39,911 nt of DNA, from the NCBI GenBank assembly GCA_035380045.1, contig DAOSWM010000025.1, positions 1-39,911 of the forward strand, read 5' to 3'. The translations under genes and the position numbers were made by a program. The DNA comes from Tenuifilaceae bacterium (GTDB lineage Bacteria; Bacteroidota; Bacteroidia; Bacteroidales; Tenuifilaceae). Of the stretch, positions 6,511 through 39,523 are shown one piece after another (position 1 is the stretch's first letter; each line of letters starts with the position of its first letter). The notes beneath the pieces are model-generated. The model did no database searches and had not been told where the DNA came from. It was given only the letters and a program-made list of their open reading frames with translations.

Positions 6511-6579
6511 TCTTATCTATTTATTCTTTTGCATTCTACATTTTACATTTTACATTCTTAACCTTTAACCTTTTATAAT

Positions 6580-10901: not shown

Positions 10902-11216
10902 ATTTCCAATTGTAAATGATTTGCCCAAAGATAGAGATAAAAAAAAATTATGCAAGCAAAAAAAATGGTCAATTCATTTCCATTTTTCATTGCGACACTC
11001 TGGAAATGGAGCCGATATATCAAATATTTTGTGGTTTTTTTAGAACTCTGGTGAAGTTAAAAATCAGCGAACAACATATAAATCTGATTATCTTTATGTT
11101 ATCGTGGCGTCAGGTTAGGTAAAAACAGCTGTAAAACATACCCACAACCTTTATTTTTAGTACAAAATATTATCTTTAACTACTATTTTCGCAGCCAAAT
11201 TCAATGAGTAAAATCG

Positions 11217-11987
11217 ATGCGAGGTAGTCTAGTATTCATAATTACTTTATTTTTCATTTCTTTTTCTTTGTTTTCAAGTGAAACCGAAAAGAAATCGCCC
11301 CTAACCGAGCCATCAGAGAAAATACACATGGCATCGGATTCGCTGAAGTTCGATTTCTCCGCCGATTTCCGCTCGCGCCATATTTGGCGCGGAAATCTTA
11401 CCTGTAGCGCATGGAGCGTTCAGCCTACCATGAACCTTACCTCCTCAAACTTTCTGGTTGGCATCTGGGGTGCTTACACGGTTGACAACAGCTACACGGA
11501 GTTCGACCTTTACGCTTCGTACACCTACAAACGTTTCACCATTGCCATACTCGACTATTTTTGTCCCAGCGAAACGGTTAAATTCAACCACCTATTCAAC
11601 TATAGCAATAAAACAACAAAACACACGCTCGATGCGGTACTCAGCTTCAACGGAACCCAAAGATTCCCGCTGAGCATATCGGCCTCAACGCTGTTCTTTG
11701 GCGACGATAAAAACCCCAGTAATGGTGAAAACTACTTTTCCACCTATATCGAAGCCAGCTATAAATGGGAAGTAAGCGAGCAGCTTAAATCAGAATTTCA
11801 CGTTGGCCTCACTCCCTTCGAAGGTTACTACTCAACAGGGGCAAACGTGGTTAGCTGCGGCTTGTCGATAACTCAAAACTTGCAAATTTCATCAAGTTTC
11901 AAACTTCCGATAAATGGCAAACTCATTATCAATCCTAACACAGAGAATGTGTTCTTTGTGTTAGGGTTTACATTGGGATACTTCTAG
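11217..11987 (+). CDS. Hypothetical secreted protein, probable outer-membrane beta-barrel
   Basis: A signal peptide, alternating hydrophobic beta-strand pattern and a C-terminal aromatic residue (…GFTLGYF) typical of OM barrels. No family was recognised. Confidence 0.4.
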   Translation: MRGSLVFIITLFFISFSLFSSETEKKSPLTEPSEKIHMASDSLKFDFSADFRSRHIWRGNLTCSAWSVQPTMNLTSSNFLVGIWGAYTVDNSYTEFDLYASYTYKRFTIAILDYFCPSETVKFNHLFNYSNKTTKHTLDAVLSFNGTQRFPLSISASTLFFGDDKNPSNGENYFSTYIEASYKWEVSEQLKSEFHVGLTPFEGYYSTGANVVSCGLSITQNLQISSSFKLPINGKLIINPNTENVFFVLGFTLGYF

Positions 11988-12117
11988 AATTCTGGCAAAA
12001 AAATAAATTCAGCTCTCATTCACTCATCCGAAAAACACTCAACGCCAAACATTTTTGCTTTACTTTTTTTTAACTTTCCCTTTTTCCCCCTTCATAACCA
12101 TAAAAAAGCTTTATAAA

Positions 12118-12135
12118 CTTTGCAGATTAGCAAAG
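12118..12135 (+). promoter_or_regulatory. Perfect palindrome CTTTGC-AGATTA-GCAAAG in the promoter region upstream of the CheR-led cluster, overlapping a TTTG ... TATTTTTA Bacteroidota-type promoter candidate
   Basis: Read directly from the sequence. It lies ~130 bp upstream of the ATG at 12264. Confidence 0.25.
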
Positions 12136-12263
12136 TATTTATATTTTTAGCAAGTTAATTTTGTACAAAATGCCAATGACTTTTTCTGACTCTTTGGTAT
12201 TTTGCATATTTGTTTTTACACAAAACACAAGGACAGTAAAGCAAAAACTACCAAGAGCCCCCT

Positions 12264-13103
12264 ATGATAATTACAGATCAAGATCTTCAATATTTTGTAA
12301 GTGCTCTTAAGAACTCCTCTAAGTACGACTTTAGCGAATACTCGGACAAATCGCTCAAGCGTAGGCTTCAGAAGGTGATGGAAGATTTTAATTTAGATAT
12401 CACAGGGCTTATCTCAGCCATACGTAGCGATGCCGATTTTTCAGAAAAAATTGTAAAAGAAATTACCGTAAATACTACTGAACTTTTTCGGGATCCACAG
12501 GTTTGGCACACCCTTCGGTCTCGCATTCTTCCTCGTTTTAAAAACAACAAAACCATTAACATATGGCATGCCGGGTGTTCAACCGGCCAGGAGGTCTATT
12601 CAATGATGATACTCCTAAATGAGATGGGAATGTTTGATAAAGCAAAGATTTTTGCCTCAGATCTAAATACCGATGTCCTCGATGCAGCCAAGAAGGGGCT
12701 GTATAAATACCGTTTCAATATTGGGTATCTTGATAATTTCGACAAGGTTATTAAACAAAACCCATTAAACTACGAAGAGTTTAATGACGTTCCATACGAA
12801 ACTTATTTTGATATTGACAAGGTTAGGGACTCCATTTCCATGAAAAAGTTTTTAACTGAAAAACCCATATTCAGGAAGCATGACTTGGTGAAGGACGGGA
12901 ATCTCTTTTTTGCCAAATTTGACCTTATTCTATGTAGAAACGTAATAATTTATTTTAACTACTCGTTGCAGAACAAAGTATTCGAACTCTTCCATTCAAA
13001 CCTATACAATAAGGGCGTTTTGTTACTAGGTATGCACGAAACAATACTGGGGCCATGGGCCGCTAAGTTCGACAAGATGGGGCAAGCTTACATTAAAAAA
13101 TAA
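12264..13103 (+). CDS. cheR: CheR-type protein-glutamate O-methyltransferase (standalone)
   Basis: It has the CheR N-terminal helical domain and the SAM-binding signature: FFRDPQVW...INIWHAGCSTGQEVYSMMILL...IFASDLN...LILCRNVIIYF. Confidence 0.8.
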   Translation: MIITDQDLQYFVSALKNSSKYDFSEYSDKSLKRRLQKVMEDFNLDITGLISAIRSDADFSEKIVKEITVNTTELFRDPQVWHTLRSRILPRFKNNKTINIWHAGCSTGQEVYSMMILLNEMGMFDKAKIFASDLNTDVLDAAKKGLYKYRFNIGYLDNFDKVIKQNPLNYEEFNDVPYETYFDIDKVRDSISMKKFLTEKPIFRKHDLVKDGNLFFAKFDLILCRNVIIYFNYSLQNKVFELFHSNLYNKGVLLLGMHETILGPWAAKFDKMGQAYIKK

Positions 13104-13129
13104 TTTTGCAGTTATAATCAGTTTTAGGC

Positions 13130-15502
13130 ATGAAGTTTTTAAAAAATATGAGCATCAAACAAAGAATTCAACTTTTGGTTGTCACCCTAATGGTTGTACT
13201 CTTTTCTGCTTCTGCCATTATAGCATACTACATGCTCCGCAAACAATCACAAATATCCACTGATAAGCAAACGATGCTATACCTCGGTCAGCTGGAAAAA
13301 ATTATAACCCTCATTAACGAAAACACTGAACCTGGCTTCGATCACAACGACTACATCCAAATTAAACCATACTTCACCCAAAACCCCTACTTTAAAACCG
13401 ATTACCCTTTTCTAATCGACATTTCTGGCAACTATCTGATTCATCTATACAAAGAAGGTCAGAAATTCCCGCGTGAGCAACTAAAAGAAATGCTCACTAA
13501 CCCTGAAAAAAAAGGTGTAATTATATACGAAGACTATAAGAACGCCCAGCAACAGATCGTTTCACTTTATTTCAAAAAAATTGAACCCTACAACTCTTTC
13601 GTTGCGATTCCCATAAATCATGATGAGGCGTTCTCCCACCTGCAAAACAGCATACTAATTCTTTTAGCCATTGCGATAGCATGCACCCTCATTTCCTTTT
13701 TTATTATCAGGAGAACCTTAAACCCACTGATAAAGGCAATTAACACAGTAAGTAAAAGTCTTAACCTCCTGTCAACAGGACAGGTAGCTCCAAAGATTAA
13801 TTATTTACAAAATGACGAGGTTGGACAAATTGTTCTACCGCTCAATTCTCTTATTGATGGGGTTCAACGAACAACGCTCTTTGCAAAAAGAATAGGTAAA
13901 AGTGAACTCGATGTTGAATTCATCACCATGGGGGAAAATGATGAGCTTGGTAATTCGTTGCTTGAGCTGAAAAACAGCATGCTAAAAACTGCAAAGGAAA
14001 ACGAACAACGAAAACTTCAGGATGAGCAACGGAACTGGAGTACTTCTGGAATTGCAAAGTTTGGTGATATCCTGCGTCAAAACAACAACAACCTTCAGTT
14101 TCTCTCCGACAGTGTTATTCAAAATTTAGTTAACTATCTCAACGCAAACCAGGGAGGCCTATTTATTCTTAACGAATCCGATAACACCCCATACCTTGAA
14201 CTCATTTCGGCTTTCGCATTCAACCGTAAAAAGGTTAAAACAAAAACTATCCATGTAGGAGAGGGACTCGTAGGGAATTGTGCAATAGAAAAACAAACTA
14301 TTTACCTAAAAGAAATTCCCGAAGATTACATTGAGATTACGTCTGGGCTTGGTGATGCTCCTCCAAGTTCGCTTCTCATTGTACCCCTCAAGCTTGAAGA
14401 TAAAATTTTTGGAGTAGTTGAACTTGCTTCATTTAATGAGTTTCAACCTCATGAAATTGAATTCGTTGAAATAATAGGAGAAAGCATCGCCTCTACCCTC
14501 TCCGCTGTGAAAAATAACATCCGAACCAATGAGCTCCTAGAACAATCGCAGCAACAACGTGAAGAAATGGCTGCTCAGGAGGAGGAAATGCGGCAGAACA
14601 TGGAGGAAATGCAAGCCACGCAGGAAGAGATGGCACGCAAAACCCTCGAGATGGAAGGTATGACATCTGCCATTAATGAATCGTTAGCTTTTGCGGAGCT
14701 AACCGAGGAGGGAAACTTCATAATGGCGAATCCAAACTTTTTAAGCCTAACAGGTTACGGAAAAACAGAAATTGAGAATAAACGTATCAACGACTTCATT
14801 CACTCCGACGAGGCTGCGATCTTCAACAAAAACTGGAAGAACATTGTGATAGGCGAACCCTTTAAGGGAACGCTCAAGTGGGTGAACCATAGCGAAGAGG
14901 AATTGTATGTGCTTGCAAGCATAAGTCCTGCCTTCGATGAAAGCGGACGTATTTTTAAAATATTCTTCCTGGGTCAGGATGTTAGCGAATCAAAAAAAAT
15001 TGAGTTGAAAGCCCAAGCGCAAGCCGAAGAGATTGAAAAGAGTTTAATGGAACTCGAGATGGAACAGGAACTATCCAAGCAACGCGAAGAGGAAATGGAT
15101 GCTTTGCTTCAAGCCCTCGACACCACCTGCCTTGTAACACAATTTGAACCCGATGGTCGCATTACATACATCAACAATAAAAACGTTGAAACACTTGGCG
15201 ATCCAAAAAGCAAAATTGAAGGGAAACTCCATTCCGAACTTGATTTTCAAGCTAAAAATAATCCCCAAGAGTACAAACAGTTCTGGGAAGACTTGCTTCT
15301 GGGCATTCAAAAAACCAGAGAATTTTCACTCAACGTTAGCGGAAAAAATATCTGGATTTCAGAACACTACACCCCTATTAAAAATACAGAAGGGAAAGTT
15401 ATTAAAATTATTAACATCGGAATCGACATATCTGCCTCGAAAGACACGGAAAAAAAATTGAGGGAAACTGTTAACTCCTTAAAAAAGGACAAGGAAAAGT
15501 AA
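13130..15502 (+). CDS. Membrane sensor protein: TM-periplasmic region-TM-HAMP-GAF-coiled coil-PAS-coiled coil-PAS, with no recognisable output domain
   Basis: A TM helix, a ~150-aa extracytoplasmic region and a second TM helix (ILILLAIAIACTLISFFII) are followed by a HAMP-like segment. The GAF motif is ITSGLGDAPPSSLLIVPLKLEDKIFGVVELASF. The EE-heptad helix EEMAAQEEEMRQNMEEMQATQEEM resembles MCP methylation helices. Two PAS-like blocks follow. No kinase, cyclase or phosphatase domain is present. Confidence 0.7.
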   Translation: MKFLKNMSIKQRIQLLVVTLMVVLFSASAIIAYYMLRKQSQISTDKQTMLYLGQLEKIITLINENTEPGFDHNDYIQIKPYFTQNPYFKTDYPFLIDISGNYLIHLYKEGQKFPREQLKEMLTNPEKKGVIIYEDYKNAQQQIVSLYFKKIEPYNSFVAIPINHDEAFSHLQNSILILLAIAIACTLISFFIIRRTLNPLIKAINTVSKSLNLLSTGQVAPKINYLQNDEVGQIVLPLNSLIDGVQRTTLFAKRIGKSELDVEFITMGENDELGNSLLELKNSMLKTAKENEQRKLQDEQRNWSTSGIAKFGDILRQNNNNLQFLSDSVIQNLVNYLNANQGGLFILNESDNTPYLELISAFAFNRKKVKTKTIHVGEGLVGNCAIEKQTIYLKEIPEDYIEITSGLGDAPPSSLLIVPLKLEDKIFGVVELASFNEFQPHEIEFVEIIGESIASTLSAVKNNIRTNELLEQSQQQREEMAAQEEEMRQNMEEMQATQEEMARKTLEMEGMTSAINESLAFAELTEEGNFIMANPNFLSLTGYGKTEIENKRINDFIHSDEAAIFNKNWKNIVIGEPFKGTLKWVNHSEEELYVLASISPAFDESGRIFKIFFLGQDVSESKKIELKAQAQAEEIEKSLMELEMEQELSKQREEEMDALLQALDTTCLVTQFEPDGRITYINNKNVETLGDPKSKIEGKLHSELDFQAKNNPQEYKQFWEDLLLGIQKTREFSLNVSGKNIWISEHYTPIKNTEGKVIKIINIGIDISASKDTEKKLRETVNSLKKDKEK

Positions 15503-15529
15503 GGTTAAGTTGCTGACTAAAACGAAACG

Positions 15530-16360
15530 ATGGTACGATACGAAATAGGCATAGTAGAAACACGAAACGTAATCAAAACTTTACTTGAAACCTTTGATTA
15601 CGACTTTAGCGATTATGCGCTTACCTCATTTAAGCGAAGACTTGAAGATATTATTATTAACAACGGACTGAAGGATGCCGATGGATTAATTTACAGGCTA
15701 AAAAACAACAAGGACTACTTCGAATATTTCCTCCGTGAAATAACTCCTGAAACAACTGAAATGTTTCGCGATCCTTCACTATGGCGAACACTCCGCGATG
15801 ATATTATTCCTGATATCACCAGAACATCAGGAAAATTAAAATTCTGGGTTGGCAATTTCGATTCGGGGGAAGATTTATATTCGCTCTGTATCACCCTCAA
15901 CGAATTGGGCATCCTAAACGAATCAACTATATACTGTTCAATCATCAGCAATGTAATTGAACATAAAATAAAAAGCGGTAAAATCGACTTTAAGCAGGTT
16001 GAAACCAATGAAGCGAACTATACACGCTGTAACGGCGACAAAAACTACTCCGATTACGTTACCGTTAACAATGGAATGGCTACAATTGATACCAAACTGA
16101 TTGAAAACGTTACCTTCCTGAAGCAAAACACCCTATTCAACAACTGTCCTAACAGCGTTAAACTTCTACTTTTCAGGAACCAGATTATTTACTACAACCA
16201 ATCGTTACAGGATAAAATAATAAATAACATCTCAAATAGTTTGGTCGCAGGAGGGTACCTGGCCATTGGCGCAAAAGAAACCTTGGATAATACAAATACA
16301 AGCAATAAATTTACCGTGATTAACGATGCCGAAAAAGTTTACAAAAAGAAAACAGGTTAG
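15530..16360 (+). CDS. Divergent CheR-like methyltransferase paralog (SAM-binding glycine/cysteine motif degenerated)
   Basis: The CheR N-terminal motif MFRDPSLWRTLRDDIIPDI is present. The canonical G-C-S-T-G-E-E-x-Y-S is replaced by GNFDSGEDLYS. The C-terminal LLLFRNQIIYYN corresponds to the CheR LIFCRNVLIYF. It is therefore CheR-fold but possibly catalytically altered. Confidence 0.65.
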   Translation: MVRYEIGIVETRNVIKTLLETFDYDFSDYALTSFKRRLEDIIINNGLKDADGLIYRLKNNKDYFEYFLREITPETTEMFRDPSLWRTLRDDIIPDITRTSGKLKFWVGNFDSGEDLYSLCITLNELGILNESTIYCSIISNVIEHKIKSGKIDFKQVETNEANYTRCNGDKNYSDYVTVNNGMATIDTKLIENVTFLKQNTLFNNCPNSVKLLLFRNQIIYYNQSLQDKIINNISNSLVAGGYLAIGAKETLDNTNTSNKFTVINDAEKVYKKKTG

Positions 16361-16366
16361 TAAATT

Positions 16367-16927
16367 ATGTATAAAGCAGTTATAATAGGAGGTTCTGCAG
16401 GAAGTTTTCAGGTGATAACTAAAATTCTAAGTTCATTACCACAAAACTTTCATTTACCTGTGCTTCTTAGCCTTCACAGGCTAAAACATGTTCGAAGCGG
16501 ATTCGTTGAAGCCCTTTCCATCAAGGCCTCAATACCTGTTATCGAACCATATGATAAGGATCAGATTAAACCCGGCAAAGCATACCTAGCCCCAGCCAAC
16601 TACCATATGTTTGTTGAATTGGGAAATAAAATTGCTCTTTCAACGGAAGAACCCGTAAATCACTCGCGTCCATCCATCGACCTTTCTTTCACTACTGCAG
16701 CCCAAGTGTACCGCGATAAACTAATCGGCATAATACTCTCTGGCGCCAACAAGGATGGTGCTTACGGCTTAAAAAAAATTAAGGATTATGGTGGGATTGC
16801 CATTGTTCAAGATCCTGAGGAATGCCAAGTTAAAACAATGACCGAGTCATCGCTTCGACTCACAAAAGTCGACCATATTTATAGAACAAATGAGATTATT
16901 AGATTTTTACAAAATCTTAAACCCTAA
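16367..16927 (+). CDS. cheB: CheB-type protein-glutamate methylesterase, catalytic domain only (no receiver domain)
   Basis: The catalytic triad context is conserved: GGSAGS (Ser), NHSRPSID (His) and SGANKDGA (Asp). At 186 aa it lacks the N-terminal REC domain. Confidence 0.8.
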   Translation: MYKAVIIGGSAGSFQVITKILSSLPQNFHLPVLLSLHRLKHVRSGFVEALSIKASIPVIEPYDKDQIKPGKAYLAPANYHMFVELGNKIALSTEEPVNHSRPSIDLSFTTAAQVYRDKLIGIILSGANKDGAYGLKKIKDYGGIAIVQDPEECQVKTMTESSLRLTKVDHIYRTNEIIRFLQNLKP

Positions 16928-16939
16928 CCCCGATGCCCA

Positions 16940-17749
16940 ATGAAAAAACTCTCATTCAAATCGAGATTTAGCCACGGCATCCTGCTGTTAATACTTCTTT
17001 CCGGAGCCATAACTTCGGCATTAATAATGCATAACATCATCCTACAGCTAGGCGGCAGAATATCTCTTATCCCCATCATTCTTATACTTTTTGCAATTGG
17101 GGCTGGAGTTATGCTATACCAGAAAGCAGCATCAAATTACCGGCAGTTTTACAAAAAAACAGAAGAGCTAGAACATCTCAAAAAAGCCGTTGAACAAGCA
17201 CGTAAAGCAGAGGAAGAGAAAGAAGTAGCAAAAAAAAGTAAGGAAAACCAAGAGCAAACAGTTGTCGACTTCGACGCTGAAGTACAATCGGTTATCCCCC
17301 TTGAAACCTTTGAAAACAACGAACAGTACATAGAGAAACTGCTAGCCAACGTCGCTAATAAGTTTGAAATCGTTCAGGGAATTGTTTTTCTCTACAACCC
17401 ACAGAAGAAGAAATTCTGCTTCTCTGGAGGTTACGCATACTTCTCAGAAGAGATTCCAAGAGAGTTTTCTGAAGGTGAAACACTTTCAGGACAGGTTGCA
17501 AAAAACAAGATTCTACTTAACCTCGACAATGTTCCCGAAGGTTACATTACAATCCTTTCGGGTCTTGGGAAAGGAACCCCAAAAAACCTAATTATCGCAC
17601 CTGTCCTCACTGCTCAAAGCGAATGTATTGGCGTAATTGAGCTGGCTTCATTTAAGCCCTTTACAAAGGATTGTGAAAAAGTATTCGAACTACTGGGCAA
17701 GTCCGTGGGCGTACAAATTGAAAATAAAACCCTAAGCAATGAGGAGTAG
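16940..17749 (+). CDS. Small membrane protein with two TM helices, a coiled coil and a C-terminal GAF domain
   Basis: The TM helices are ILLLILLSGAITSALIM and LIPIILILFAIGAGVMLY. The coiled coil is EELEHLKKAVEQARKAEEEKE. The GAF motif ITILSGLGKGTPKNLIIAPVLTAQSECIGVIELASF is paralogous to the GAF domains of the two flanking large sensors. Confidence 0.6.
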   Translation: MKKLSFKSRFSHGILLLILLSGAITSALIMHNIILQLGGRISLIPIILILFAIGAGVMLYQKAASNYRQFYKKTEELEHLKKAVEQARKAEEEKEVAKKSKENQEQTVVDFDAEVQSVIPLETFENNEQYIEKLLANVANKFEIVQGIVFLYNPQKKKFCFSGGYAYFSEEIPREFSEGETLSGQVAKNKILLNLDNVPEGYITILSGLGKGTPKNLIIAPVLTAQSECIGVIELASFKPFTKDCEKVFELLGKSVGVQIENKTLSNEE

Positions 17750-17752
17750 TTT

Positions 17753-20365
17753 ATGGTAACTCATAGCAAAATATCTTCAACCACCCAAGCTAGGCTCATC
17801 TCCCATAAAGTGGTGATGGCAGGTGTAATAGGATTACTTTTTATGGTTCTTGCCTGGATTTTAGAACTCATCGGACAAAATATTCCCTTCTCAATAAGCA
17901 GTATTGGAGCAATACATTCTACAAACCCCACTTTATGGATAATTGACATACTCCCATTACTTTTTGCATATGTCACCTGGGTTCAGCTCTCAAAGCATCA
18001 GGAAAAAGTTGTTTTCCTTGAGGAAGAAATCCAGCAACGTGACGACGACATAAATAAAAACGCTCTTTTTGCAAAAAAGATTGGAGAGGGCGACTACAAT
18101 GCCAACCTTGAGATTAGCGATGAAGAGGATATTCTCGGGAAATCGCTCCTGGTTATGCGCGACAACCTCCTAGAGAATAACCAGAAGGAATCGGAGCAGA
18201 ATTGGATTTCAACAGGCAAGGATGAAGTTTCGCACATACTCCGATTGCATAACAACATCGATGAGCTAACCTACGAGGTTCTGGTTAAACTCATTAACTA
18301 CATAAACGTTATTCAAGGTGCCCTCTACATATACGATGAGGATAAAAAAATACTGAAAAACCTAGCCACATTCGCATACTCACGAAAAAAATTCATCAAT
18401 CAGGAGTTTAAAATCGGACAAGGTTTAATTGGTCAATGTGCCTACGAACGTGATTTTATCTACAGAACCGAAATCCCCGATAACTACATTTCAATAACAT
18501 CAGGAATACTCGGTGACAAGAAACCCAAGAGCCTCCTTATAGTACCACTTATAACCGACGAAAAACTCCAGGGCGTAATCGAGTTTGCTTCGCTTGACGA
18601 TAACATCCCCGAGCTAACAATCCGTTTCCTAAAAGAAATGGGCGAAATTATTGCCCGTACCATCTTTAACCTAAGGGTGAACCAAAAAACGGAAAGATTA
18701 CTGCAGGAAGCTCAACAGATGACTCAAGAACTTAAAGAGAACGAAGAGGAGCTTCGGCAGAATGCTGAGGAGATGAGAGCCACACACGAAGAGCTCGAGA
18801 AATCGAACGCCAAACTTGAGCAAAAAATTAAGGAGGTAGAAAACGCTCAAAAACGATTACACTCACTCCTTGAAAACGCATCAGAAATAATATCGATTTA
18901 CAGCAGCAGCCTTAAACTCACCTACATAAGCCCTTCGGTAACAAAAATTTTAGGCTACACACCCCAGGAAATGATGAGCGGAAAGGATATCGATAGGCTT
19001 ACCCGCAAGGGCGAGCAAGATTTGAGCGACATGTTCCACAAGCTACTCGACTCTCCCCGTATGCCCATCACCATCCAGTACACTTTCATGAAAAAGGATG
19101 GAGAAAAGATATTCCTTGAGGTTACCGGACGTAACTTACTCGACGACACTGCAATTAATGGCATCATTCTTAACTCCCAAGATATTACTGAGCGCAAAAG
19201 AGCCGAGAAGGAGGAACGCATGCGGAGCAAAATGCAGGCCCTATCAGAGAACTCACCCGACATGATTATTCGCCTCAACACCGCAGGACAATTCTTCTAC
19301 GCCAACCCCATGGTGGAGCAGTACCTTGGCATTCCGGTGAAAGACTTAATAAACCAAACCCTTAACTCCATTGAAATAAACGAAACGCTTCTCTCCTTCT
19401 TCAAAGAATCAATTAAAACCATAAAAACCACCAAACAGAAAGTTGAAGAAGACCTTACTTTCGATGCAAAAATTGGTGAAACCATAATGCATATCTCAGC
19501 AATTCCGGAATTTAACGAGAATGAACTCGAAACAATCCTTTTCGTTAGCCACGATATTACCGAAGCGAAACGCATTGAACTCGAAATCCAGGATAAAAAC
19601 CGAAAGATTACCGAAAGTATCAACTACGCACAGCGTATTCAAACCTCAATACTTCCAAACAACAAAATTATTCGACAGTATCTGCCAAAATCATTCATTT
19701 ACTATAAACCACGCGACGTGGTTAGCGGCGACTTCCCCTGGTTTTTTATAAAAGAAGATTACATCTACATTGCTGCTGTCGACTGTACTGGGCATGGAGT
19801 TCCTGGAGCTCTGCTCTCATTCATTGGTTACTTTACACTCAACAATGTTGTTGACCATGATGTTACCTATAGCGCAGGAAAAATTCTTGACGTACTTCAT
19901 TTTGGAGTACGCAAAACCCTTAAACAGGACAGACCCGATGCTGATGCTCGTGATGGGATGGACATTGCACTTTGTAAAATAAATCTTAAAAAGAAAGAAC
20001 TCCAATACTCAGGTGCTCACAGGCCCCTGTTCCTTTTACGAAACAAAGAGCTACTTGAATACAAAGGCGACCGAAAAGCCATTGGGGGCATCCCTCATCC
20101 AAAGAAAGAGGAGTCTGACTTTACAAACTACATCATCGAGCTAAAACAGGGAGATAAGATATTCTTCTTCTCCGATGGCATGCCCGACCAAGTTGGTGGT
20201 TCAGACATCAGAAAGTACGGACCAGCAAGAATCCGGGAGATTATCACAGGCAATCCAGACATGACAATGCCCCAGTACAACGAAATTTTCTCAAAAGATT
20301 TTGAAGAGTATAAGGGTGAAAATAAGCAAATTGACGACGTTTTACTAATTGGTATAGAATTCTAA
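17753..20365 (+). CDS. Membrane sensor phosphatase: TM-HAMP-GAF-EE-heptad coiled coil-PAS-PAS-PP2C/SpoIIE Ser/Thr phosphatase (SiaA/RsbU-like)
   Basis: Two TM helices are followed by a HAMP-like linker. The GAF motif is ITSGILGDKKPKSLLIVPLITDEKLQGVIEFASL. The EE-heptad helix is QELKENEEELRQNAEEMRATHEELEKS. Two PAS blocks follow. The PP2C motifs are RIQTSILP...VSGDFPWF...AAVDCTGHGVPGALLS...DGMDIAL...FFSDGMPDQ. The start overlaps the stop of the upstream gene (ATGGTAAC). Confidence 0.8.
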   Translation: MVTHSKISSTTQARLISHKVVMAGVIGLLFMVLAWILELIGQNIPFSISSIGAIHSTNPTLWIIDILPLLFAYVTWVQLSKHQEKVVFLEEEIQQRDDDINKNALFAKKIGEGDYNANLEISDEEDILGKSLLVMRDNLLENNQKESEQNWISTGKDEVSHILRLHNNIDELTYEVLVKLINYINVIQGALYIYDEDKKILKNLATFAYSRKKFINQEFKIGQGLIGQCAYERDFIYRTEIPDNYISITSGILGDKKPKSLLIVPLITDEKLQGVIEFASLDDNIPELTIRFLKEMGEIIARTIFNLRVNQKTERLLQEAQQMTQELKENEEELRQNAEEMRATHEELEKSNAKLEQKIKEVENAQKRLHSLLENASEIISIYSSSLKLTYISPSVTKILGYTPQEMMSGKDIDRLTRKGEQDLSDMFHKLLDSPRMPITIQYTFMKKDGEKIFLEVTGRNLLDDTAINGIILNSQDITERKRAEKEERMRSKMQALSENSPDMIIRLNTAGQFFYANPMVEQYLGIPVKDLINQTLNSIEINETLLSFFKESIKTIKTTKQKVEEDLTFDAKIGETIMHISAIPEFNENELETILFVSHDITEAKRIELEIQDKNRKITESINYAQRIQTSILPNNKIIRQYLPKSFIYYKPRDVVSGDFPWFFIKEDYIYIAAVDCTGHGVPGALLSFIGYFTLNNVVDHDVTYSAGKILDVLHFGVRKTLKQDRPDADARDGMDIALCKINLKKKELQYSGAHRPLFLLRNKELLEYKGDRKAIGGIPHPKKEESDFTNYIIELKQGDKIFFFSDGMPDQVGGSDIRKYGPARIREIITGNPDMTMPQYNEIFSKDFEEYKGENKQIDDVLLIGIEF

Positions 20366-20403
20366 ATTGATTATTATCGGTAAATTATTTAATTTTACGG
20401 GCT

Positions 20404-20979
20404 ATGGACAAAAAGAATGTTAAAGGGTTTCTTGAGTTTGTATACGACTTCTACAAGTCGATGAAAGCTCATGAAATCACCCTTGTGTACGAGGGTGAAA
20501 TAACCCACCAAATCACCAAGGCCTTTACCTCCCTCACTGAGTCGAACATGGCGAAGGAGGAAGAGTCTAACTCTGTGCAGAAGAAAGTCTTTCATGTTAT
20601 GGTAGAGTGCCTGCAAAACATTAGCAAGCACGCCGACAGCTTCGGCTCCGATGACTTTCTGTTCGCCGGACGAGGAATCTTCATGGTTAGTAAAGGTGAA
20701 ATTGAGTACCATGTTACTACCGGGAACGTGATTGAGAACTCAAAGATTGATGAACTCACAAAAATTCTCGACCACATCAACACCCTGGATAAGGACGGTT
20801 TGAAAGAACTGTACAAAACACAGATGCGAGAAGGACGTCTTTCGGAGAAAGGTGGAGCAGGACTTGGATTTATTGATATTGCTAGGAAAACTGGCCGTAA
20901 ACTCGAGTACCACTTCCTCCCCATCGACGAAGAAACCCACTTCTTTATTTTAACCTCAACCATATCCAGAAACGAGTAA
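20404..20979 (+). CDS. GHKL-type Ser/Thr protein kinase, SiaB/RsbW/SpoIIAB-like partner-switch kinase
   Basis: The N-box-like VECLQNISKHA and the G2-box EKGGAGLGFIDIARKTG of HATPase_c anti-sigma-factor-type kinases are present. The 191-aa size and position directly after a PP2C phosphatase gene fit this role. Confidence 0.6.
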   Translation: MDKKNVKGFLEFVYDFYKSMKAHEITLVYEGEITHQITKAFTSLTESNMAKEEESNSVQKKVFHVMVECLQNISKHADSFGSDDFLFAGRGIFMVSKGEIEYHVTTGNVIENSKIDELTKILDHINTLDKDGLKELYKTQMREGRLSEKGGAGLGFIDIARKTGRKLEYHFLPIDEETHFFILTSTISRNE

Positions 20980-20994
20980 GAAAATACAAGAGCT

Positions 20995-21378
20995 ATGGAA
21001 ACCATAAAGATCATGGGTACCGACGATACCCCAACTGTTATTCTCGATGCTGATAACGATATCTTTGAGATATCAGGCCGCTCTCTCCCCGAGGATGTAA
21101 CCGCATTCTACGAGCCCATACTTAACTGGCTCGACGATTATGCCAACTCGCCTAATGCGAAAACCGTGTTTATATTTAAACTCGTTTACTTTAACACAGC
21201 GAGCTCCAAGCTTCTACTTGACATTCTTATGAAGCTTGAGCAAATGCATGAAGATGGCAAGGAGGTATTAATCCGATGGTTCTACCCTGAAGATGATGAA
21301 GATATGCAGGAAGCTGGTGAGGAGTATGCTGATATTGTTGATATCCCATTTGAGCAGGTAAGCTACACGCTAACCTAA
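20995..21378 (+). CDS. DUF1987/SiaC-like small regulatory phosphoprotein, the probable kinase/phosphatase substrate
   Basis: It is 127 aa. The pattern DDTPTVILDADNDIFEISGRSLPEDVTAFYEPILNWLDDY ... VYFNTASSKLL ... WFYPEDDEDMQEAGEEY matches the SiaC-family layout as remembered, including the Ser/Thr-containing YFNT(A/S)SS segment. The family assignment is from recall, not a search. Confidence 0.55.
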   Translation: METIKIMGTDDTPTVILDADNDIFEISGRSLPEDVTAFYEPILNWLDDYANSPNAKTVFIFKLVYFNTASSKLLLDILMKLEQMHEDGKEVLIRWFYPEDDEDMQEAGEEYADIVDIPFEQVSYTLT

Positions 21379-21419
21379 TTTAGCCTATAGCTATCCGTTT
21401 GCTTTAACAAACCTTAGCA

Positions 21420-24400
21420 ATGAGTGAAGAAATTCTCAAGGCTTTAATGCAACTGTTTGCGATTATCGCCAAACAGGACGAGGGCGTTGAATCTAATGAA
21501 CGCGACTACGTCGTGAATTTTCTTACTCAACAACTTAACGATGAGGCCGTTAAGGAGTATATCAATCTTTTTGATCAGCATGCAGGCCTTAACGATGAAA
21601 AGGAGGAGGATAATGGCGAGGAGGGGAAACCCAAAAAAGTAAAACTCACCTCGGTTAAGGACTCTGTAAAGATCCTGGGGATTTGCAAAAAAATTAACAA
21701 AACACTTACCCAGGAGCAAAAAGTAGTTGTTCTGGTTCGCCTTTTTGAGCTGGTTAATGCCGACCGAAAATTTACCGACCAACGGATGGCCATTATAAAC
21801 ACTGTGGCCGAAGTATTTAAACTCACAAAGGAAGAGTTTCAGGATGTTGAAAATTTTGTTATCAACAACGACCCAAAAGATCTCGATTATCCCAGCATTC
21901 TCAGTATACACGACAAGGAAGAACTAGGCGAACACTGCAAGCACATTCCCACAGAGGCACTCAACGGATACCTATTCATTCTCCAAATTAAAAGTGTCGA
22001 CCTATATTTCCTGCGATACACAGGAAATGAGGACATTTTCCTAAACGGGCTACCAATTAACAACAAACGCATCTACCTTTTCGCAAGTGGTAGTTCAATT
22101 AAACTTCCTAAGGGAAAACCTGTTTACTATACCGATGTTGTTGCTCACTTCCTCGCCGATTTGAGTGCAACCCGGATTTGTTACGATGTTCAGGATGTTG
22201 GTTTCAGGTTCAAATCAGGCGATATTGGGCTCCGCAACATCAGCTTCAAGGAAGAACATGGCAAACTCATAGGCATTATGGGTGCCAGCGGTGCCGGAAA
22301 AACAACACTTTTAAACGTTCTAGCTGGGGTTGAAAAACCAACGAGCGGCCGAGTTCTTATCAATGGATTCGATTTACACAATGAGAAAGAAAAAGTTGAG
22401 GGTGTTATCGGTTTAATACCCCAGGACGATCTGCTCATTGAAGAGCTAACCGTTTTTCAGAACCTGTACTACAACGCAAAGCTATGCTTTAAAAACAAGA
22501 CCGAAGAAGAACTTGTTGAACTTGTCGACAGAACGCTCGACAACCTAGGCCTTCTTGAAAGGAAGAACCTAAAGGTTGGTTCGCCCATGAATAAAATGAT
22601 TTCGGGTGGCCAGCGGAAAAGGTTGAACATAGCCCTCGAGCTTATCCGCGAACCCTCCATCCTATTTGTCGACGAACCAACTTCTGGCCTATCATCACGC
22701 GACTCTGAAAACGTTATGGACCTTCTAAGGGAACTAACCCTTAAAGGCAAGCTAATTTTTGTGGTTATCCACCAGCCATCGTCGGACATATATAAAATGT
22801 TCGATAACATGACCATTCTTGATACTGGCGGATACCTTATATATTATGGGAATCCCGTTGAAGCCGTTATGTATTTCAAACGCCTCGACATGCAAATTAA
22901 CAGTGATGTTGGCGAATGTCCCACGTGCGGTAACGTTAACCCAGAGCTCATCTTCAACATTATTGAAGCCAAAGTGGTTGATGAATTTGGTCGCTACACA
23001 CCAACCCGAAAAGTATCACCACCAAAGTGGGAGGATTACTACCACGAAAACATCAAACTGAGGGAAGTTAATGACGAAACCGAGCCTCCCCCAAAATCCC
23101 TAGATATCCCCTCAGCGTTCAAACAGTTCTTAATATACACAACCCGCGACTTCCTGTCAAAGGTTAGCAATACGCAGTATATAGTACTAAACCTACTCGA
23201 AACCCCTATTCTGGGATTTATTCTTGCATTCGTAATACGATACATAGCCGACCCAAACTCAAATATTTATATTTTCCGCGAAAACGAAAACATACCCATC
23301 TATATTTTTATGGCGCTAATTGTGGCCCTGTTTATTGGCTTAACAGTAAGTGCCGAGGAAATTTTTCGCGACAGAAAAATACTGAAGCGAGAAGCATTCC
23401 TAAACCTTAGCCGAACCTCGTACCTTTTTAGTAAAATATCTATCCTTGTAGTTCTGTCTGCTATACAAAGCATTACGTTTGTGCTAATTGCAAATGGGAT
23501 TCTCCAACTCAAAGGAATGAACTTCGAGTACTGGCTCGTACTATTCTCCACAGCAGTTTTTGCTAACCTTTTAGGGCTGAATATTTCAGCAACTTTCAAT
23601 TCGGCCGTAACCATATATATTGTTATCCCGCTTTTAATGATTCCTATGATGGTTCTTTCCGGAGCCATGTTTAGCTTCGAGAAGCTTAATCGAGCCGTAG
23701 GAAGTTTTAGCCGTGTCCCAATTATCGCTGAATTTATGGTCACCAAATGGGGCTACGAGGCTCTGGTGGTACACCAGTATAAGGATAACGATTTCCAGAA
23801 GAATTTCTACGAGATAGAGAAGGTTGAACGCAACGCAAACTACAAAACCGTATACTACATTCCTGAAATTGAAAAAAAGGTTCTTGAAACCTTAGATCTA
23901 CTTGAAAGTTCAAACGAGGAAAACCAACAAACACTATCCGCAGACTTAAACACGATACACAAGGCAATATTCAACGAAACGAACTATTTAGCACCAGGTG
24001 TGCCATTTAGCTTCATTGATAGCATAACCATAAACAGCTACTCATTCGAAACTGCATACGCTATTATTGATTACCTAGATGCCCTGAAAAATCATTACAG
24101 TAAAATTTTTCAGGGGGCAAACCAGAAACGCGACCGAATTATCAACCACCTTGTCAGCACCAATCCTAAACTCTATGAAGCAAAAAGGAGAGCCTACCAT
24201 AACGAAAGCATCGCCGACCTAGCAGAAAAAGTATTTGAAAAAAATAAAATTCTTTTATACAAAGATGAATTCGTACAACAATACGACCCCATATACAGGG
24301 ATCCCTTACCAAGGCATGCGCTCGATTTTCGCTCACACTTCTTAGCCCCCCGAAAATTCTTTTTTGGCAACTTCTTTGATACGTTTTGGTTCAATATTTG

Positions 24401-24509
24401 TTTTATATGGTTTATGTCTATAGTTCTTTACATAACACTTTACTTTGAAACATTAAAAAAACTGTTAGATCTTTCCTCTAAAATAAAAATACCATGGGGG
24501 AAAAAATAA
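21420..24509 (+). CDS. Fused ABC transporter (ABCG/White-like): N-terminal regulatory region (TerB-like helical domain plus FHA-like segment), ABC ATPase, ABC-2 type permease and a ~250-aa C-terminal extension
   Basis: Walker A is GASGAGKTTLLNVLAG, the ABC signature is ISGGQRKRLNIALEL and Walker B is ILFVDEPTSGL. Six TM helices follow the ATPase (aa ~560-790). The N-terminal ~240 aa, MSEEILKALMQLFAIIAKQDEGVESNERDYV...NADRKFTDQRMAIINTVAEVF, is TerB-like. The segment YLFILQIKSVDLYFLRYTGNEDIFLNGLPINNKRIYLFASGSSIKL is FHA-like. Both N-terminal calls are tentative. Confidence 0.8.
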   Translation: MSEEILKALMQLFAIIAKQDEGVESNERDYVVNFLTQQLNDEAVKEYINLFDQHAGLNDEKEEDNGEEGKPKKVKLTSVKDSVKILGICKKINKTLTQEQKVVVLVRLFELVNADRKFTDQRMAIINTVAEVFKLTKEEFQDVENFVINNDPKDLDYPSILSIHDKEELGEHCKHIPTEALNGYLFILQIKSVDLYFLRYTGNEDIFLNGLPINNKRIYLFASGSSIKLPKGKPVYYTDVVAHFLADLSATRICYDVQDVGFRFKSGDIGLRNISFKEEHGKLIGIMGASGAGKTTLLNVLAGVEKPTSGRVLINGFDLHNEKEKVEGVIGLIPQDDLLIEELTVFQNLYYNAKLCFKNKTEEELVELVDRTLDNLGLLERKNLKVGSPMNKMISGGQRKRLNIALELIREPSILFVDEPTSGLSSRDSENVMDLLRELTLKGKLIFVVIHQPSSDIYKMFDNMTILDTGGYLIYYGNPVEAVMYFKRLDMQINSDVGECPTCGNVNPELIFNIIEAKVVDEFGRYTPTRKVSPPKWEDYYHENIKLREVNDETEPPPKSLDIPSAFKQFLIYTTRDFLSKVSNTQYIVLNLLETPILGFILAFVIRYIADPNSNIYIFRENENIPIYIFMALIVALFIGLTVSAEEIFRDRKILKREAFLNLSRTSYLFSKISILVVLSAIQSITFVLIANGILQLKGMNFEYWLVLFSTAVFANLLGLNISATFNSAVTIYIVIPLLMIPMMVLSGAMFSFEKLNRAVGSFSRVPIIAEFMVTKWGYEALVVHQYKDNDFQKNFYEIEKVERNANYKTVYYIPEIEKKVLETLDLLESSNEENQQTLSADLNTIHKAIFNETNYLAPGVPFSFIDSITINSYSFETAYAIIDYLDALKNHYSKIFQGANQKRDRIINHLVSTNPKLYEAKRRAYHNESIADLAEKVFEKNKILLYKDEFVQQYDPIYRDPLPRHALDFRSHFLAPRKFFFGNFFDTFWFNICFIWFMSIVLYITLYFETLKKLLDLSSKIKIPWGKK

Positions 24510-24562
24510 TTTTTTATATATTTACTTGTTTAGAATTATAGTTAAATACAAAACTCAATGTT

Positions 24563-25474
24563 ATGGCAAGGATCATACCTCTTCTTCTAATAATATCTGT
24601 TCTACTTTCATCGTGCAGATCCTGCAACCAAGATCAGGATGCGAATAAGGAGTTTGACATCCCTGATGAATTAATGAACGACGAGCAGCCCCTCCCTGTA
24701 TCCTCTGAAGTTATTGATGAGATTGTACAAAACGTATCTTCTCCCGTTGAAACTGCTGCCCTTATTAAAGGCTTAAAGGTTCCCTTTAACAAGGATTACA
24801 TGGCCTCAACCAATAGCGCTAAAAACATGAATACCAGCTTTCAAAAAGCGTTAGGGCTAGGCATTTACGGAGCCGACCTTGGCTACCTAAACATGTATGA
24901 AAAAACAACCGTTGTGATCGATTATATCTCAACAGTAAAGGATTTGGCTGATGGCATTCAAGTCGGTCAATTTTTCGACTTTAACACCCTTCGACGGATT
25001 GCCACTAACAAAGAGAACCTAGATTCTTTAATGCTCATTTCCCAGCAAAGTTTCAATCGAATTGACAGCTATCTACGTGAAACTAACCGAGCAAGCCTAA
25101 GTGTGGTAATTATTGCTGGTGTTTGGCTTGAGGGTCTATATCTTTCTACCAGGGTTGCACAGGATGCGAACCACCCACGAATAAACGAAACCATTGGCGA
25201 ACAAAAGGTTATTATGGGAACCCTTATGGCTCTTCTTGATAACTATAAACGTGACCCCAATATTGCAACCTTAATTTCTGATTTTGAGGAGATAAAAGAT
25301 TTGTATAAGGATGTTACAATAACCTACGAGATAGGAGGCGAACCAACACCCGTTGTCAAGGACGGTGTTCTCACATTTGTTCAGAATGATGTGCAAACAA
25401 TAAAAATGTCTGACGAAACATTAAAGGCCATAATAACAAAGGTGCAAACATTAAGAAACAAATTTATTAGTTAA
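24563..25474 (+). CDS. Hypothetical lipoprotein
   Basis: Signal peptide with a lipobox-like LLSSC. There is no recognisable family. It is co-directional with and 54 bp after the ABC transporter. Confidence 0.45.
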   Translation: MARIIPLLLIISVLLSSCRSCNQDQDANKEFDIPDELMNDEQPLPVSSEVIDEIVQNVSSPVETAALIKGLKVPFNKDYMASTNSAKNMNTSFQKALGLGIYGADLGYLNMYEKTTVVIDYISTVKDLADGIQVGQFFDFNTLRRIATNKENLDSLMLISQQSFNRIDSYLRETNRASLSVVIIAGVWLEGLYLSTRVAQDANHPRINETIGEQKVIMGTLMALLDNYKRDPNIATLISDFEEIKDLYKDVTITYEIGGEPTPVVKDGVLTFVQNDVQTIKMSDETLKAIITKVQTLRNKFIS

Positions 25475-25493
25475 TCAGAGAAATTTAAGGGCC

Positions 25494-25931
25494 ATGAAAA
25501 AAACATATTTTATTTTACTACTAACGTTCATTCTCTCCGGAGCCTATTCGATTGCTTTCGCTCAATCTGAAGACGATTTAGTTGAGATTTGTGGAATGAT
25601 AGCACAGGATGCAACCTACCTTAAAGACTTTAAGGTAAGGCTCGATGCGGGGAATCCTCCTCCAGTTCAGCGTTTTTCAGTAATTCTTAAGAAAGGAATT
25701 AAGTACAGGTTCTCGGTTTGCAATTCCAAGGACTATGAAGGGAAAGTTGTTCTTCAGCTACTTGATAACAACCGCCTCCTAGCCACCACTCACGTAGTGG
25801 CAAGCGGACAGGACTACCCATCAATAGACTATGTGTGCACAAAGACAGGAGCATACCACCTCTTCTTCAACTTTAAGGACGGAAAACCTGGGTTGGCTGT
25901 TGGCTTACTTTCGCTGGTTGAAACAATATAG
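25494..25931 (+). CDS. Hypothetical small secreted protein
   Basis: Signal peptide MKKTYFILLLTFILSGAYSIAFAQ. It is 145 aa with no recognisable family. Confidence 0.4.
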   Translation: MKKTYFILLLTFILSGAYSIAFAQSEDDLVEICGMIAQDATYLKDFKVRLDAGNPPPVQRFSVILKKGIKYRFSVCNSKDYEGKVVLQLLDNNRLLATTHVVASGQDYPSIDYVCTKTGAYHLFFNFKDGKPGLAVGLLSLVETI

Positions 25932-26002
25932 CTAAATACAATTAATAAATATTCAGGGTATTCATTTTTGAGTACCCTTTTTTATTCTGGAATTGTAAAA
26001 AA

Positions 26003-26036: not shown

Positions 26037-26113
26037 TGGCTCCTCATCTAGGACTTGAACCTAGGACCCCCTGATTAACAGTCAGGTGCTCTAACCAACT
26101 GAGCTAATGAGGA
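26037..26113 (-). tRNA. tRNA-Asn (anticodon GTT), CCA encoded
   Basis: The reverse complement reads TCCTCATTAGCTCAGTTGGTTAGAGCACCTGACTGTTAATCAGGGGGTCCTAGGTTCAAGTCCTAGATGAGGAGCCA. This gives a cloverleaf with a 7-bp acceptor stem, D arm, anticodon loop CTGTTAA and T arm GGTTCAAGTCC. Confidence 0.85.
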
Positions 26114-39436: not shown

Positions 39437-39523
39437 GCCCGGATGGCGGAATTGGTAGACGCGCTGGTCTCAAACACCAGTGGTAGCAATACCGTGCCGG
39501 TTCGACCCCGGCTCCGGGTACCA
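39437..39523 (+). tRNA. tRNA-Leu (anticodon CAA), long variable arm, CCA encoded
   Basis: The sequence is GCCCGGATGGCGGAATTGGTAGACGCGCTGGTCTCAAACACCAGTGGTAGCAATACCGTGCCGGTTCGACCCCGGCTCCGGGTACCA. The anticodon loop is CTCAAAC and the T arm is GCCGGTTCGACCCCGGC. Confidence 0.85.

Follow-up and report, generated by a model that had tools for sequence, protein, structure and literature searches.

A Sia-type partner switch encoded beside an ATP-binding cassette exporter in Bacteroidota, with the exporter as candidate target

To our knowledge, the Sia system of Pseudomonas aeruginosa is the only system of its kind that has been studied, and its output there is a diguanylate cyclase. What such a switch might act on when no cyclase is encoded alongside is the question raised by a 39,911-nucleotide (nt) stretch of DNA from an uncultured Tenuifilaceae bacterium of the order Bacteroidales (GenBank assembly GCA_035380045.1, contig DAOSWM010000025.1, positions 1 to 39,911 of the forward strand; hereafter the window), in which genes for a SiaB-like kinase and a SiaC-like phosphoprotein are directly followed by a gene for a large ATP-binding cassette (ABC) exporter. 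The junction between the SiaC and ABC genes is constant across five lineages while the sensors vary, which makes the exporter the leading candidate for the target. By analogy with P. aeruginosa SiaC and its partner SiaD, we propose, with about even confidence, that this Sia-type partner switch may gate the adjacent exporter by protein contact.

Components of the switch

An earlier note, made from the sequence of the window without database searches, had described a pair of genes for a SiaB-like kinase of 191 amino acids (aa) and a SiaC-like protein of 127 aa, and matches to Pfam, NCBIfam, and Protein Data Bank (PDB) entry 6kko bear this out. The kinase matched Pfam DUF6272 at 150.8 bits (E 2e-44; cutoff 26.6), the NCBIfam subfamily model NF038262, 'SiaB family protein kinase', at 178.1 bits (cutoff 85), and P. 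aeruginosa SiaB (PDB 6kko_A) at E 1.8e-13. Its E68 aligns with the predicted catalytic Glu of P. aeruginosa SiaB, E61 (PMC7647112), while N72 and the GAGLG at residues 151-155 align with the QNI and GAGLG nucleotide-binding motifs of 6kko_A. Identity of the kinase across 80 species was 75-98%.

The 127-aa protein matched Pfam SiaC (PF09345, formerly DUF1987) at 143 bits (E 4e-42; cutoff 24.5) over model positions 1-119 of 120, and P. aeruginosa SiaC (PaSiaC; PDB 6kko_C/6k4f) at E 6e-15. Since the alignment to PaSiaC is gapless, the Thr of the segment YFNTASS, which the earlier note had suggested could carry the phosphosite, is residue 68 and falls on T68, the mapped phosphosite of PaSiaC (PMC7647112). 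Position 68 was mostly Thr, and Ser in some, across 46 diverse members of the SiaC family; the phospho-loop residues Y65, N67, and T68 of PaSiaC are retained here and are invariant in alignment A1. The protein has a net charge of -20, and an identical protein is present on contigs of several public metagenome assemblies. Collectively, these profile and structure matches argue for strong family membership of both proteins rather than chance resemblance. Both fell below the NCBIfam equivalog cutoffs (kinase_SiaB, 87.7 against 225; phos_prot_SiaC, 86.9 against 150), and we therefore regard them as family members and not as orthologs of the Pseudomonas Sia pathway components.

The genes for an 870-aa protein, the kinase, and SiaC are consecutive (17753-21378), with gaps of 38 and 15 nt. 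The 870-aa protein matched Pfam SpoIIE at 56.7 bits, with GAF and PAS domains also matched, and NCBIfam prot_phos_SiaA at 170.6 bits against a cutoff of 700, in its PP2C part only (model positions 397-655). This match to the SiaA model suggests that the third component of a Sia-type switch is present directly upstream of the pair. The earlier note had not placed the phosphatase in the operon, and its gene context was incomplete in this respect and in lacking the two CheR genes, one CheB gene, and two further GAF sensor genes of the same operon. From these profile matches, the core of the switch appears to be the SiaB-like kinase and the SiaC-like phosphoprotein, with the upstream GAF-PAS-PP2C protein as the phosphatase. 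A PP2C phosphatase, a Ser/Thr kinase, and a phosphorylatable antagonist encoded together are, by their predicted families, a generic partner-switch gene set. SiaB-SiaC fusion proteins were also found among the family representatives (P0184, P0223, P0269).

Other SiaC architectures were seen in the same set. Many SiaC-family representatives are tandem double-SiaC proteins of ~250-270 aa, and one 654-aa representative has three SiaC repeats after a weak DUF6272 match. Fusions of SiaC to a cytidylate-kinase-like domain, HEAT repeats, or an SLT domain were considered as clues to partners and set aside, as they are isolated and may be gene-calling run-ons.

The exporter as candidate target

The gene that follows the pair, described in the earlier note as a large ABC transporter, encodes a 1029-aa protein, and its position is conserved. 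A scan of a genome collection returned 80 Bacteroidales species loci with SiaC identities of 78-98%. The SiaB-SiaC pair was present in 80/80 of these, and the ABC gene came right after SiaC in 75/75 Bacteroidales loci where this stretch is visible. The order of the remaining nine module genes was kept wherever contigs reach, while the flanking genes hyp256, PfkB, and MPG change. A lipoprotein gene follows the ABC gene in 67/80 genome loci, the rest being truncated, and in 50/50 metagenome loci of the sister exporter subfamily described below; the gene for a 145-aa secreted protein co-occurs in 67/80 and 46/46, respectively. The 303-aa predicted lipoprotein is an obligate companion of the exporter.

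The SiaC-to-ABC junction was also found in four more distant lineages, namely L085-L087, the cultured Cytophagales species Fulvivirga maritima, L098, and L100. In L085-L087, SiaC and the ABC protein are 56% and 53% identical to those of the window, the inputs are 7TM-, PAS-, and Y_Y_Y-PP2Cs with three SiaB paralogs and no CheR/CheB, and SiaC lies directly upstream of the exporter, with the lipoprotein and secreted-protein genes inverted yet adjacent. At positions 3,041,577-3,062,785 of CP089980.1, F. maritima carries the whole module in the same order. Because the inputs vary and the junction stays, as in siaC-siaD and rsbW-sigB, we count the link to the exporter as informative. The earlier note had called the downstream target unknown, which was too pessimistic in view of a junction found in five lineages, although the link to the exporter is still one that we infer.

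The exporter is of the ABCG type, and its C-terminal extension contains one extra transmembrane (TM) segment. Its N-terminus has a predicted structure (predicted local distance difference test, pLDDT, 88.3) consisting of a TerB-like helical domain and an FHA-like sandwich. The TerB domain (Pfam PF05099) scored above the gathering cutoff, in agreement with the fold. For the second domain, the model predicts an FHA beta-sandwich fold lying N-terminal to the ATPase domain; the FHA label describes this predicted fold only. Among 70 full-length homologs, mean per-position identity to the window protein was 0.83-0.85 for the N-terminal helical domain, compared to 0.84 for the ATPase domain, and the first 20 residues hardly vary even where overall identity falls to 47%. 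Residues 78-135 form the sole basic stretch of the N-terminus, with a charge of +5, compared to -20 for SiaC.

The surface of SiaC was compared with the one that PaSiaC uses. Unphosphorylated PaSiaC grips the SiaD stalk via its T68 loop and helices alpha-2 and alpha-3, and phosphorylation blocks binding (PMC8457831). In the window protein, SiaD-contact residues of PaSiaC are replaced (S69A, D79M, R103D, L107A, D114I), and only Y65, N67, T68, and E110 are kept. The replaced positions are nearly invariant within the window clade, a pattern that fits, though does not by itself prove, a specific partner that differs from that of PaSiaC. In the paper on the SiaC-SiaD structure, its authors propose, in general terms only, that DUF1987 proteins modulate adjacent proteins (PMC8457831).

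In the mechanism that we propose, signals at the membrane GAF/PAS proteins would set PP2C activity, and PP2C and SiaB together would set the phosphorylation state of SiaC Thr68. Unphosphorylated SiaC would bind the TerB-like/FHA-like N-terminus of the exporter and alter transport, by analogy with SiaC-SiaD, while phosphorylation of SiaC would lead to its release. The two CheR proteins and the receiver-less CheB would probably methylate and demethylate a Glu pair in the sensor coiled coils, allowing adaptation. The exporter would work with the lipoprotein and the small secreted protein, and probably also with the LPG_synthase_TM protein encoded upstream of the operon. The physical interactions, the direction of regulation, the methylation, and the substrate, which may be an envelope lipid, are all features that we infer.

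Alternative readings

In agreement with the earlier note, no cyclase, sigma-factor, or STAS gene was detected near the switch. By Pfam, no GGDEF, sigma-factor, or STAS domain was found in plausible open reading frames (ORFs) of >=100 aa in the 40 kb, and tblastn with GGDEF, STAS, and extracytoplasmic function (ECF) sigma queries found none in the window or in ~85 syntenic loci. To place this absence in the SiaC family, which comprised 4864 clusters at 50% identity (E up to 0.001), we compared gene contexts in nine lineages, the window clade and eight distant ones. A profile built from 46 diverse SiaC representatives retrieved only Bacteroidales proteins of 73-86% identity, and the distant SiaC contexts were obtained by look-up of individual cluster representatives. 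Five distant lineages were picked as diverse SiaC representatives on long contigs; the other three were found via the exporter N-terminus, and that part of the sample is therefore biased toward the exporter.

Of the lineages found via SiaC, the window clade (80 Bacteroidales loci) has the whole 11-gene module. Thermochlorobacteriaceae (L088-L090) have a Y_Y_Y-PP2C, SiaB, SiaC, and GGDEF gene, the canonical Sia layout, and a Bacteroidia metagenome-assembled genome (L085-L087) has three PP2C and three SiaB genes, SiaC, and the TerB/ABC exporter. L091 encodes CheR, CheB, PP2C, and two SiaB-SiaC pairs followed by small unknown genes; L093 encodes CheR, SiaB, SiaC, and an aminotransferase; L094 encodes SiaB, SiaC, a Y_Y_Y-PP2C, and a glycosyltransferase; and in L095 SiaB and SiaC lie beside CTP synthase. 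F. maritima, L098, and L100, found via the exporter N-terminus, have the module with the ABC exporter. A GGDEF gene thus followed SiaC in 1/9 sampled lineages (Thermochlorobacteriaceae only), a small sample assembled by two retrieval routes. The earlier note was right that a SiaD-type output is lacking here; such an absence is ordinary for the SiaC family.

Two of these contexts contained further features. In L091/L092, thermophilic-looking Bacteroidia, two tandem SiaB-SiaC pairs (10390-12301) come after CheR, CheB, a PEBP-like protein, and PP2C. Two genes downstream of the second SiaC, a 155-aa protein (11834-12301) has weak similarity to a SiaD-like cyclase in its N-terminal stalk (32% over 75 aa; tblastn E 0.002) and might be a stalk-only SiaC partner. 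The Bacteroidales locus L093 (6487-8384) has only CheR, SiaB, and SiaC beside the PurQ-like amidotransferase gene that flanks the module in the window, without PP2C, sensors, or exporter, and appears to be a cut-down version or a paralog of the module.

The exporter also occurs with no switch alongside. When a sister subfamily of the exporter was used to seed a metagenome scan (80 loci), the LPG_synthase_TM gene lay directly upstream of the ABC gene in 39/63 loci (L106-L180), and the window LPG_synthase_TM protein was 47-60% identical to the sister-subfamily copies. Among loci that carry the switch, the LPG_synthase_TM gene comes directly before the first CheR gene in L015, L045, and L047. We read LPG_synthase_TM, the ABC exporter, the lipoprotein, and the secreted protein as a self-standing, separable effector unit, and a regulatory cassette ending in SiaB-SiaC sits exactly before the exporter gene in several lineages. 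The placement of LPG_synthase_TM points tentatively to an envelope lipid as the substrate of the exporter unit. A divergent pair of genes for a LytTR response regulator and a LytS-type kinase lies within 6 kb upstream in 12/33 switch-less loci (L106, L115, L137, L144, and others) and may be an alternative regulator of the exporter unit.

Several observations weigh against gating of the exporter by SiaC. A single order supplies most of the adjacency data, and common descent therefore accounts for part of the conservation. SiaB/SiaC pairs also lie beside genes for an aminotransferase, a glycosyltransferase, and CTP synthase, which means that adjacency is not always informative, and the visible sequence is 40 kb of the genome, so that a target could be encoded elsewhere. 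SiaB/SiaC lay upstream of the exporter in 0/65 sister-subfamily metagenome loci, and L097 and L099 carry the exporter trio without SiaB/SiaC. The N-terminal domain is nearly equally conserved in this switch-less subfamily, which argues for a role independent of an adjacent SiaC. Between the coupled and sister-subfamily N-terminal domains, 82 invariant positions were shared and 12 scattered positions were group-specific. The FHA-like domain had no Pfam FHA match even at E 10, and hhalign against a verified Rad53 FHA1 sequence gave a probability of 1.7%. In a hand alignment, which is uncertain, the phosphothreonine (pThr)-binding residues R70 and N107 of Rad53 fall on D165 and the invariant E204. 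A PDB profile search with the exporter N-terminus returned nothing significant.

Two ideas about how the N-terminus might be read were tried against these data. We do not favour the FHA-like domain as a canonical reader of pThr, given the missing Pfam match, the low hhalign probability, and the acidic D165/E204. A SiaC docking site made of group-specific exporter residues found little to build on, with only 12 scattered positions compared to 82 shared ones, a result mildly against a SiaC-specific domain.

The first alternative is that the switch is real but acts on a target encoded elsewhere in the genome, such as a remote GGDEF protein, some sigma factor, or an enzyme of metabolism, with the ABC genes merely sharing a transcript or neighbourhood. 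The limited portion of the genome in view would allow this, as would the exporter trio, complete and conserved without the switch in 65/65 sister loci, and other Bacteroidota SiaB/SiaC pairs adjoin unrelated genes with no obvious target among them. However, the SiaC-to-ABC junction persists in five lineages despite the change of sensors and the inversion of the companion genes, in three species LPG_synthase_TM and the ABC gene directly flank the regulatory cassette on its two sides, and ~1.7 Mb of loci, unrelated lineages excepted, yielded no GGDEF, STAS, or sigma gene. We consider a distant target unlikely.

Gating of the exporter could also run with reversed polarity or through another effector, either because SiaC phosphorylated at T68 is read by the FHA-like domain, or because SiaB, in the manner of an anti-sigma kinase with its sigma factor, holds the exporter until unphosphorylated SiaC frees it. 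FHA domains bind pThr, and Rv1747 of Mycobacterium tuberculosis uses its FHA domains in a phosphorylation-dependent manner (PMC3138270), which would suit the first form, although the exporter gave no sequence-level FHA signal and the positions expected to hold the pThr-binding Arg and Asn are acidic. For the second, SiaB-type kinases resemble anti-sigma kinases (PMC7647112), and in the L085 lineage three SiaB paralogs accompany a single SiaC. In the single system studied, however, unphosphorylated SiaC is the binding form (PMC8457831), and we find such an arrangement doubtful, with a low probability.

Feedback by SiaC or SiaB on the sensor complex (GAF/PAS proteins, CheR, or CheB), with transcription as the sole control of the output of the operon, is improbable: it would give a use to the 790-aa and 269-aa sensors, which lack an output domain, and could explain why one Bacteroidales lineage keeps only CheR-SiaB-SiaC beside the same flanking amidotransferase gene and why CheR/CheB accompany SiaB/SiaC even without a following ABC gene (L091), but the L085 lineage has switch and exporter with no CheR, CheB, or output-less sensors, and the literature searched contained no example in which SiaC targets the sensors of its own system.

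Operon setting and known systems

The window contains a run of eleven plus-strand genes (12264-25931) with intergenic gaps of 3-53 nt (Table 1). A gap of 276 nt lies on its 5' side, and the features on its 3' side are a strong hairpin followed by a T run, a gap of 344 nt, and a tRNA-Asn gene in convergent orientation. A sigma-70 promoter scan gave a count no better than in shuffled sequence, such a scan being unsuited to Bacteroidota promoters. No Pfam or NCBIfam match was found for the 303-aa predicted lipoprotein. The first CheR gene was retained in 64/80 loci, the remainder being lost to contig ends, and CheB identity was 69-95% over 80 loci and 63% in Fulvivirga. The 790-aa sensor has two TM segments (aa 7-25 and 167-185). 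The 269-aa protein scored 25.6 bits against Pfam GAF_2, under the cutoff of 28.6; its position is conserved in the loci, and its Fulvivirga counterpart has a clear GAF domain.

Table 1. Positions of the switch, exporter, and neighbouring features in the window
Feature	Position (nt)	Strand	Details
LPG_synthase_TM (MprF-flippase-like) membrane protein	9074-10153	+	Pfam PF03706, 86.5 bits; upstream of the operon
CheR methyltransferase 1, first operon gene	12264-13103	+	Pfam CheR 130.6 bits and CheR_N
790-aa membrane sensor, no output domain	13130-15502	+	Pfam GAF_2 and two PAS, coiled coil
EEMQAT in the 790-aa sensor, candidate site	14603-14620 (aa 492-497)	+	Coiled coil after GAF
CheR methyltransferase 2	15530-16360	+	Pfam CheR 70.4 bits; conserved across syntenic loci
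CheB methylesterase, 186 aa, no receiver domain	16367-16927	+	Pfam CheB_methylest 164.8 bits, aa 5-179
269-aa membrane protein with GAF-like domain	16940-17749	+	TM aa 10-28 and 32-50
SiaA-like PP2C phosphatase, 870 aa	17753-20365	+	Two TM, GAF, coiled coil, two PAS, SpoIIE/PP2C
EEMRAT in the 870-aa PP2C protein, candidate site	18767-18784 (aa 339-344)	+	Coiled coil after GAF
SiaB-family Ser/Thr kinase (DUF6272, GHKL-like)	20404-20979	+	191 aa
SiaC-family (DUF1987, STAS-like) phosphoprotein	20995-21378	+	127 aa
Predicted SiaC phosphosite T68	codon 21196-21198	+	Aligned with PaSiaC YLNTSS T68
ABCG-type exporter, 1029 aa, candidate target	21420-24509	+	N-terminal region, nucleotide-binding domain, ABC-2 membrane domain, C-terminal extension
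Exporter N-terminal regulatory region (predicted)	21420-22169 (aa 1-250)	+	TerB-like helical domain, aa 3-155
Exporter FHA-like beta domain	21885-22169 (aa 156-250)	+	Predicted fold only
Predicted lipoprotein, 303 aa	24563-25474	+	Lipobox-like N-terminus ...LLSSC
Predicted secreted protein, 145 aa, last operon gene	25494-25931	+	Signal peptide ending AFA
Terminator-like hairpin, operon end	25955-25978	+	Ten-pair stem, then TTTTTATT (T run)
tRNA-Asn (GTT), converging on operon end	26037-26113	-	
tRNA-Leu (CAA)	39437-39523	+	

Both CheR and CheB are present in the operon by Pfam, while no methyl-accepting chemotaxis protein (MCP) signalling domain, CheA, or CheW was detected by Pfam in any ORF of the 40-kb window. 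The motif EE-x-x-A-[ST] occurs only twice in ~12,000 window-encoded residues, both times in the sensors adjoining CheR/CheB, and ~20 residues around EEMQAT and EEMRAT are conserved across the 80 loci and Fulvivirga. Glu-Glu-x-x-Ala-Ser/Thr matches the classical chemoreceptor methylation-site consensus. The two segments are candidate methyl-accepting sites outside any MCP domain, and methylation-based adaptation of the PP2C phosphatase is a plausible idea. More tentatively, and with a probability that we put on the low side, the locus may represent a CheA-independent chemosensory-like pathway in non-flagellated Bacteroidota, in which CheR and CheB would adapt a membrane PP2C and its output-less GAF-PAS partner by methylation of their coiled coils, the PP2C and a SiaB-type kinase would set the state of SiaC, and SiaC would gate an ABCG-type envelope exporter, possibly one for lipids, through its TerB-like/FHA-like N-terminus. 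If so, sensory adaptation would be coupled directly to transport, not to motility, transcription, or cyclic di-GMP. If the methylation is true, it would provide a role for orphan CheR/CheB in bacteria without CheA and flagella, and would extend methylation-based adaptation to a PP2C phosphatase.

Two features outside the operon were also observed. A second PP2C protein of 1126 aa (Reg_prop beta-propeller, Y_Y_Y, SpoIIE; 162-3542, plus strand) has no adjoining kinase or SiaC gene. It is a full-length homolog (28-29% over ~1150 aa) of the Y_Y_Y-PP2Cs beside SiaB/SiaC in L085, L088, and L094, and may be a second input to the window SiaC. A pair of genes for NfeD-like and SPFH/Band 7 (flotillin-like) proteins lies at 5914-8007 (plus strand), ~12 kb upstream of the switch; in Thermochlorobacteriaceae, a similar NfeD and Band_7/flotillin pair comes right after the SiaC-GGDEF genes (L088, 11341-13489), possibly by coincidence.

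Among the sampled members of the SiaC family from Bacteroidota, most lack a neighbouring cyclase gene; the family comprises thousands of sequence clusters. The locus is a concrete, testable candidate for a second output, an ABC exporter whose cytoplasmic part includes a dedicated regulatory region, and the comparative data define a conserved gene set without an assigned function (LPG_synthase_TM, exporter, lipoprotein, secreted protein) that is likely linked to the cell envelope. Fulvivirga maritima and Perlabentimonas gracilis are culturable carriers. In the complete genome of F. maritima, CP089980.1 (L096, 10001-13082), the exporter gene is broken near residue 392-402 into two ORFs, 402 and 629 aa long, that overlap, which could reflect a frameshift, a sequencing error, or a pseudogene; this is relevant if the strain serves for genetics. 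In the open-access papers searched, we found no description of a switch coupled to a TerB/FHA-like ABC exporter, of its embedding in an apparent envelope-transport operon, or of its association with CheR/CheB.

Among known systems, the locus resembles SiaABCD of P. aeruginosa in the order of membrane PP2C, SiaB-type kinase, and SiaC-type protein (PMC7647112, PMC8457831), in the retained Y65/N67/T68 loop, and in having the likely target gene directly downstream. Unlike SiaABCD, it has no SiaD/GGDEF gene, and an ABC exporter with a predicted TerB-like and FHA-like N-terminus lies downstream instead; the SiaD-contact residues of SiaC are replaced; GAF and PAS sensor domains form part of the phosphatase, and the locus includes CheR and CheB genes; and all three window proteins score below the NCBIfam equivalog cutoffs. 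With RsbU/RsbV/RsbW and SpoIIE/SpoIIAA/SpoIIAB it shares a PP2C phosphatase, a GHKL-like Ser/Thr kinase, a small phosphorylatable antagonist, and an adjacent output gene, but a sigma factor is lacking here, as is any STAS match by Pfam, the antagonist being of the DUF1987 type and the kinase of the DUF6272 type.

For the exporter, the closest parallel is Rv1747, an FHA-bearing ABC exporter of M. tuberculosis that is positively regulated by Ser/Thr phosphorylation (PMC3138270) through the kinase PknF (PMC3138270, PMC8339232). Both are ABC exporters with a cytoplasmic N-terminal FHA-fold domain, predicted in the window protein, and both are encoded beside a Ser/Thr phosphorylation system. In Rv1747 there are two FHA domains, both canonical, and a Hanks-type kinase carries out the phosphorylation. 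In the window exporter, by contrast, a TerB-like domain is followed by a single, divergent FHA-like domain, and the neighbouring kinase is GHKL-like, with SiaC and not a transporter as its known substrate class. The CheR and CheB genes recall MCP adaptation in lying beside membrane sensors with Glu-Glu-x-x-Ala-Ser/Thr in coiled coils. Unlike that system, the window has no MCP domain, CheA, or CheW, its CheB has no receiver, and the proposed substrates would be a PP2C phosphatase and a GAF-PAS protein. The parts of the locus belong to known families, and it follows the logic of an established type of system.

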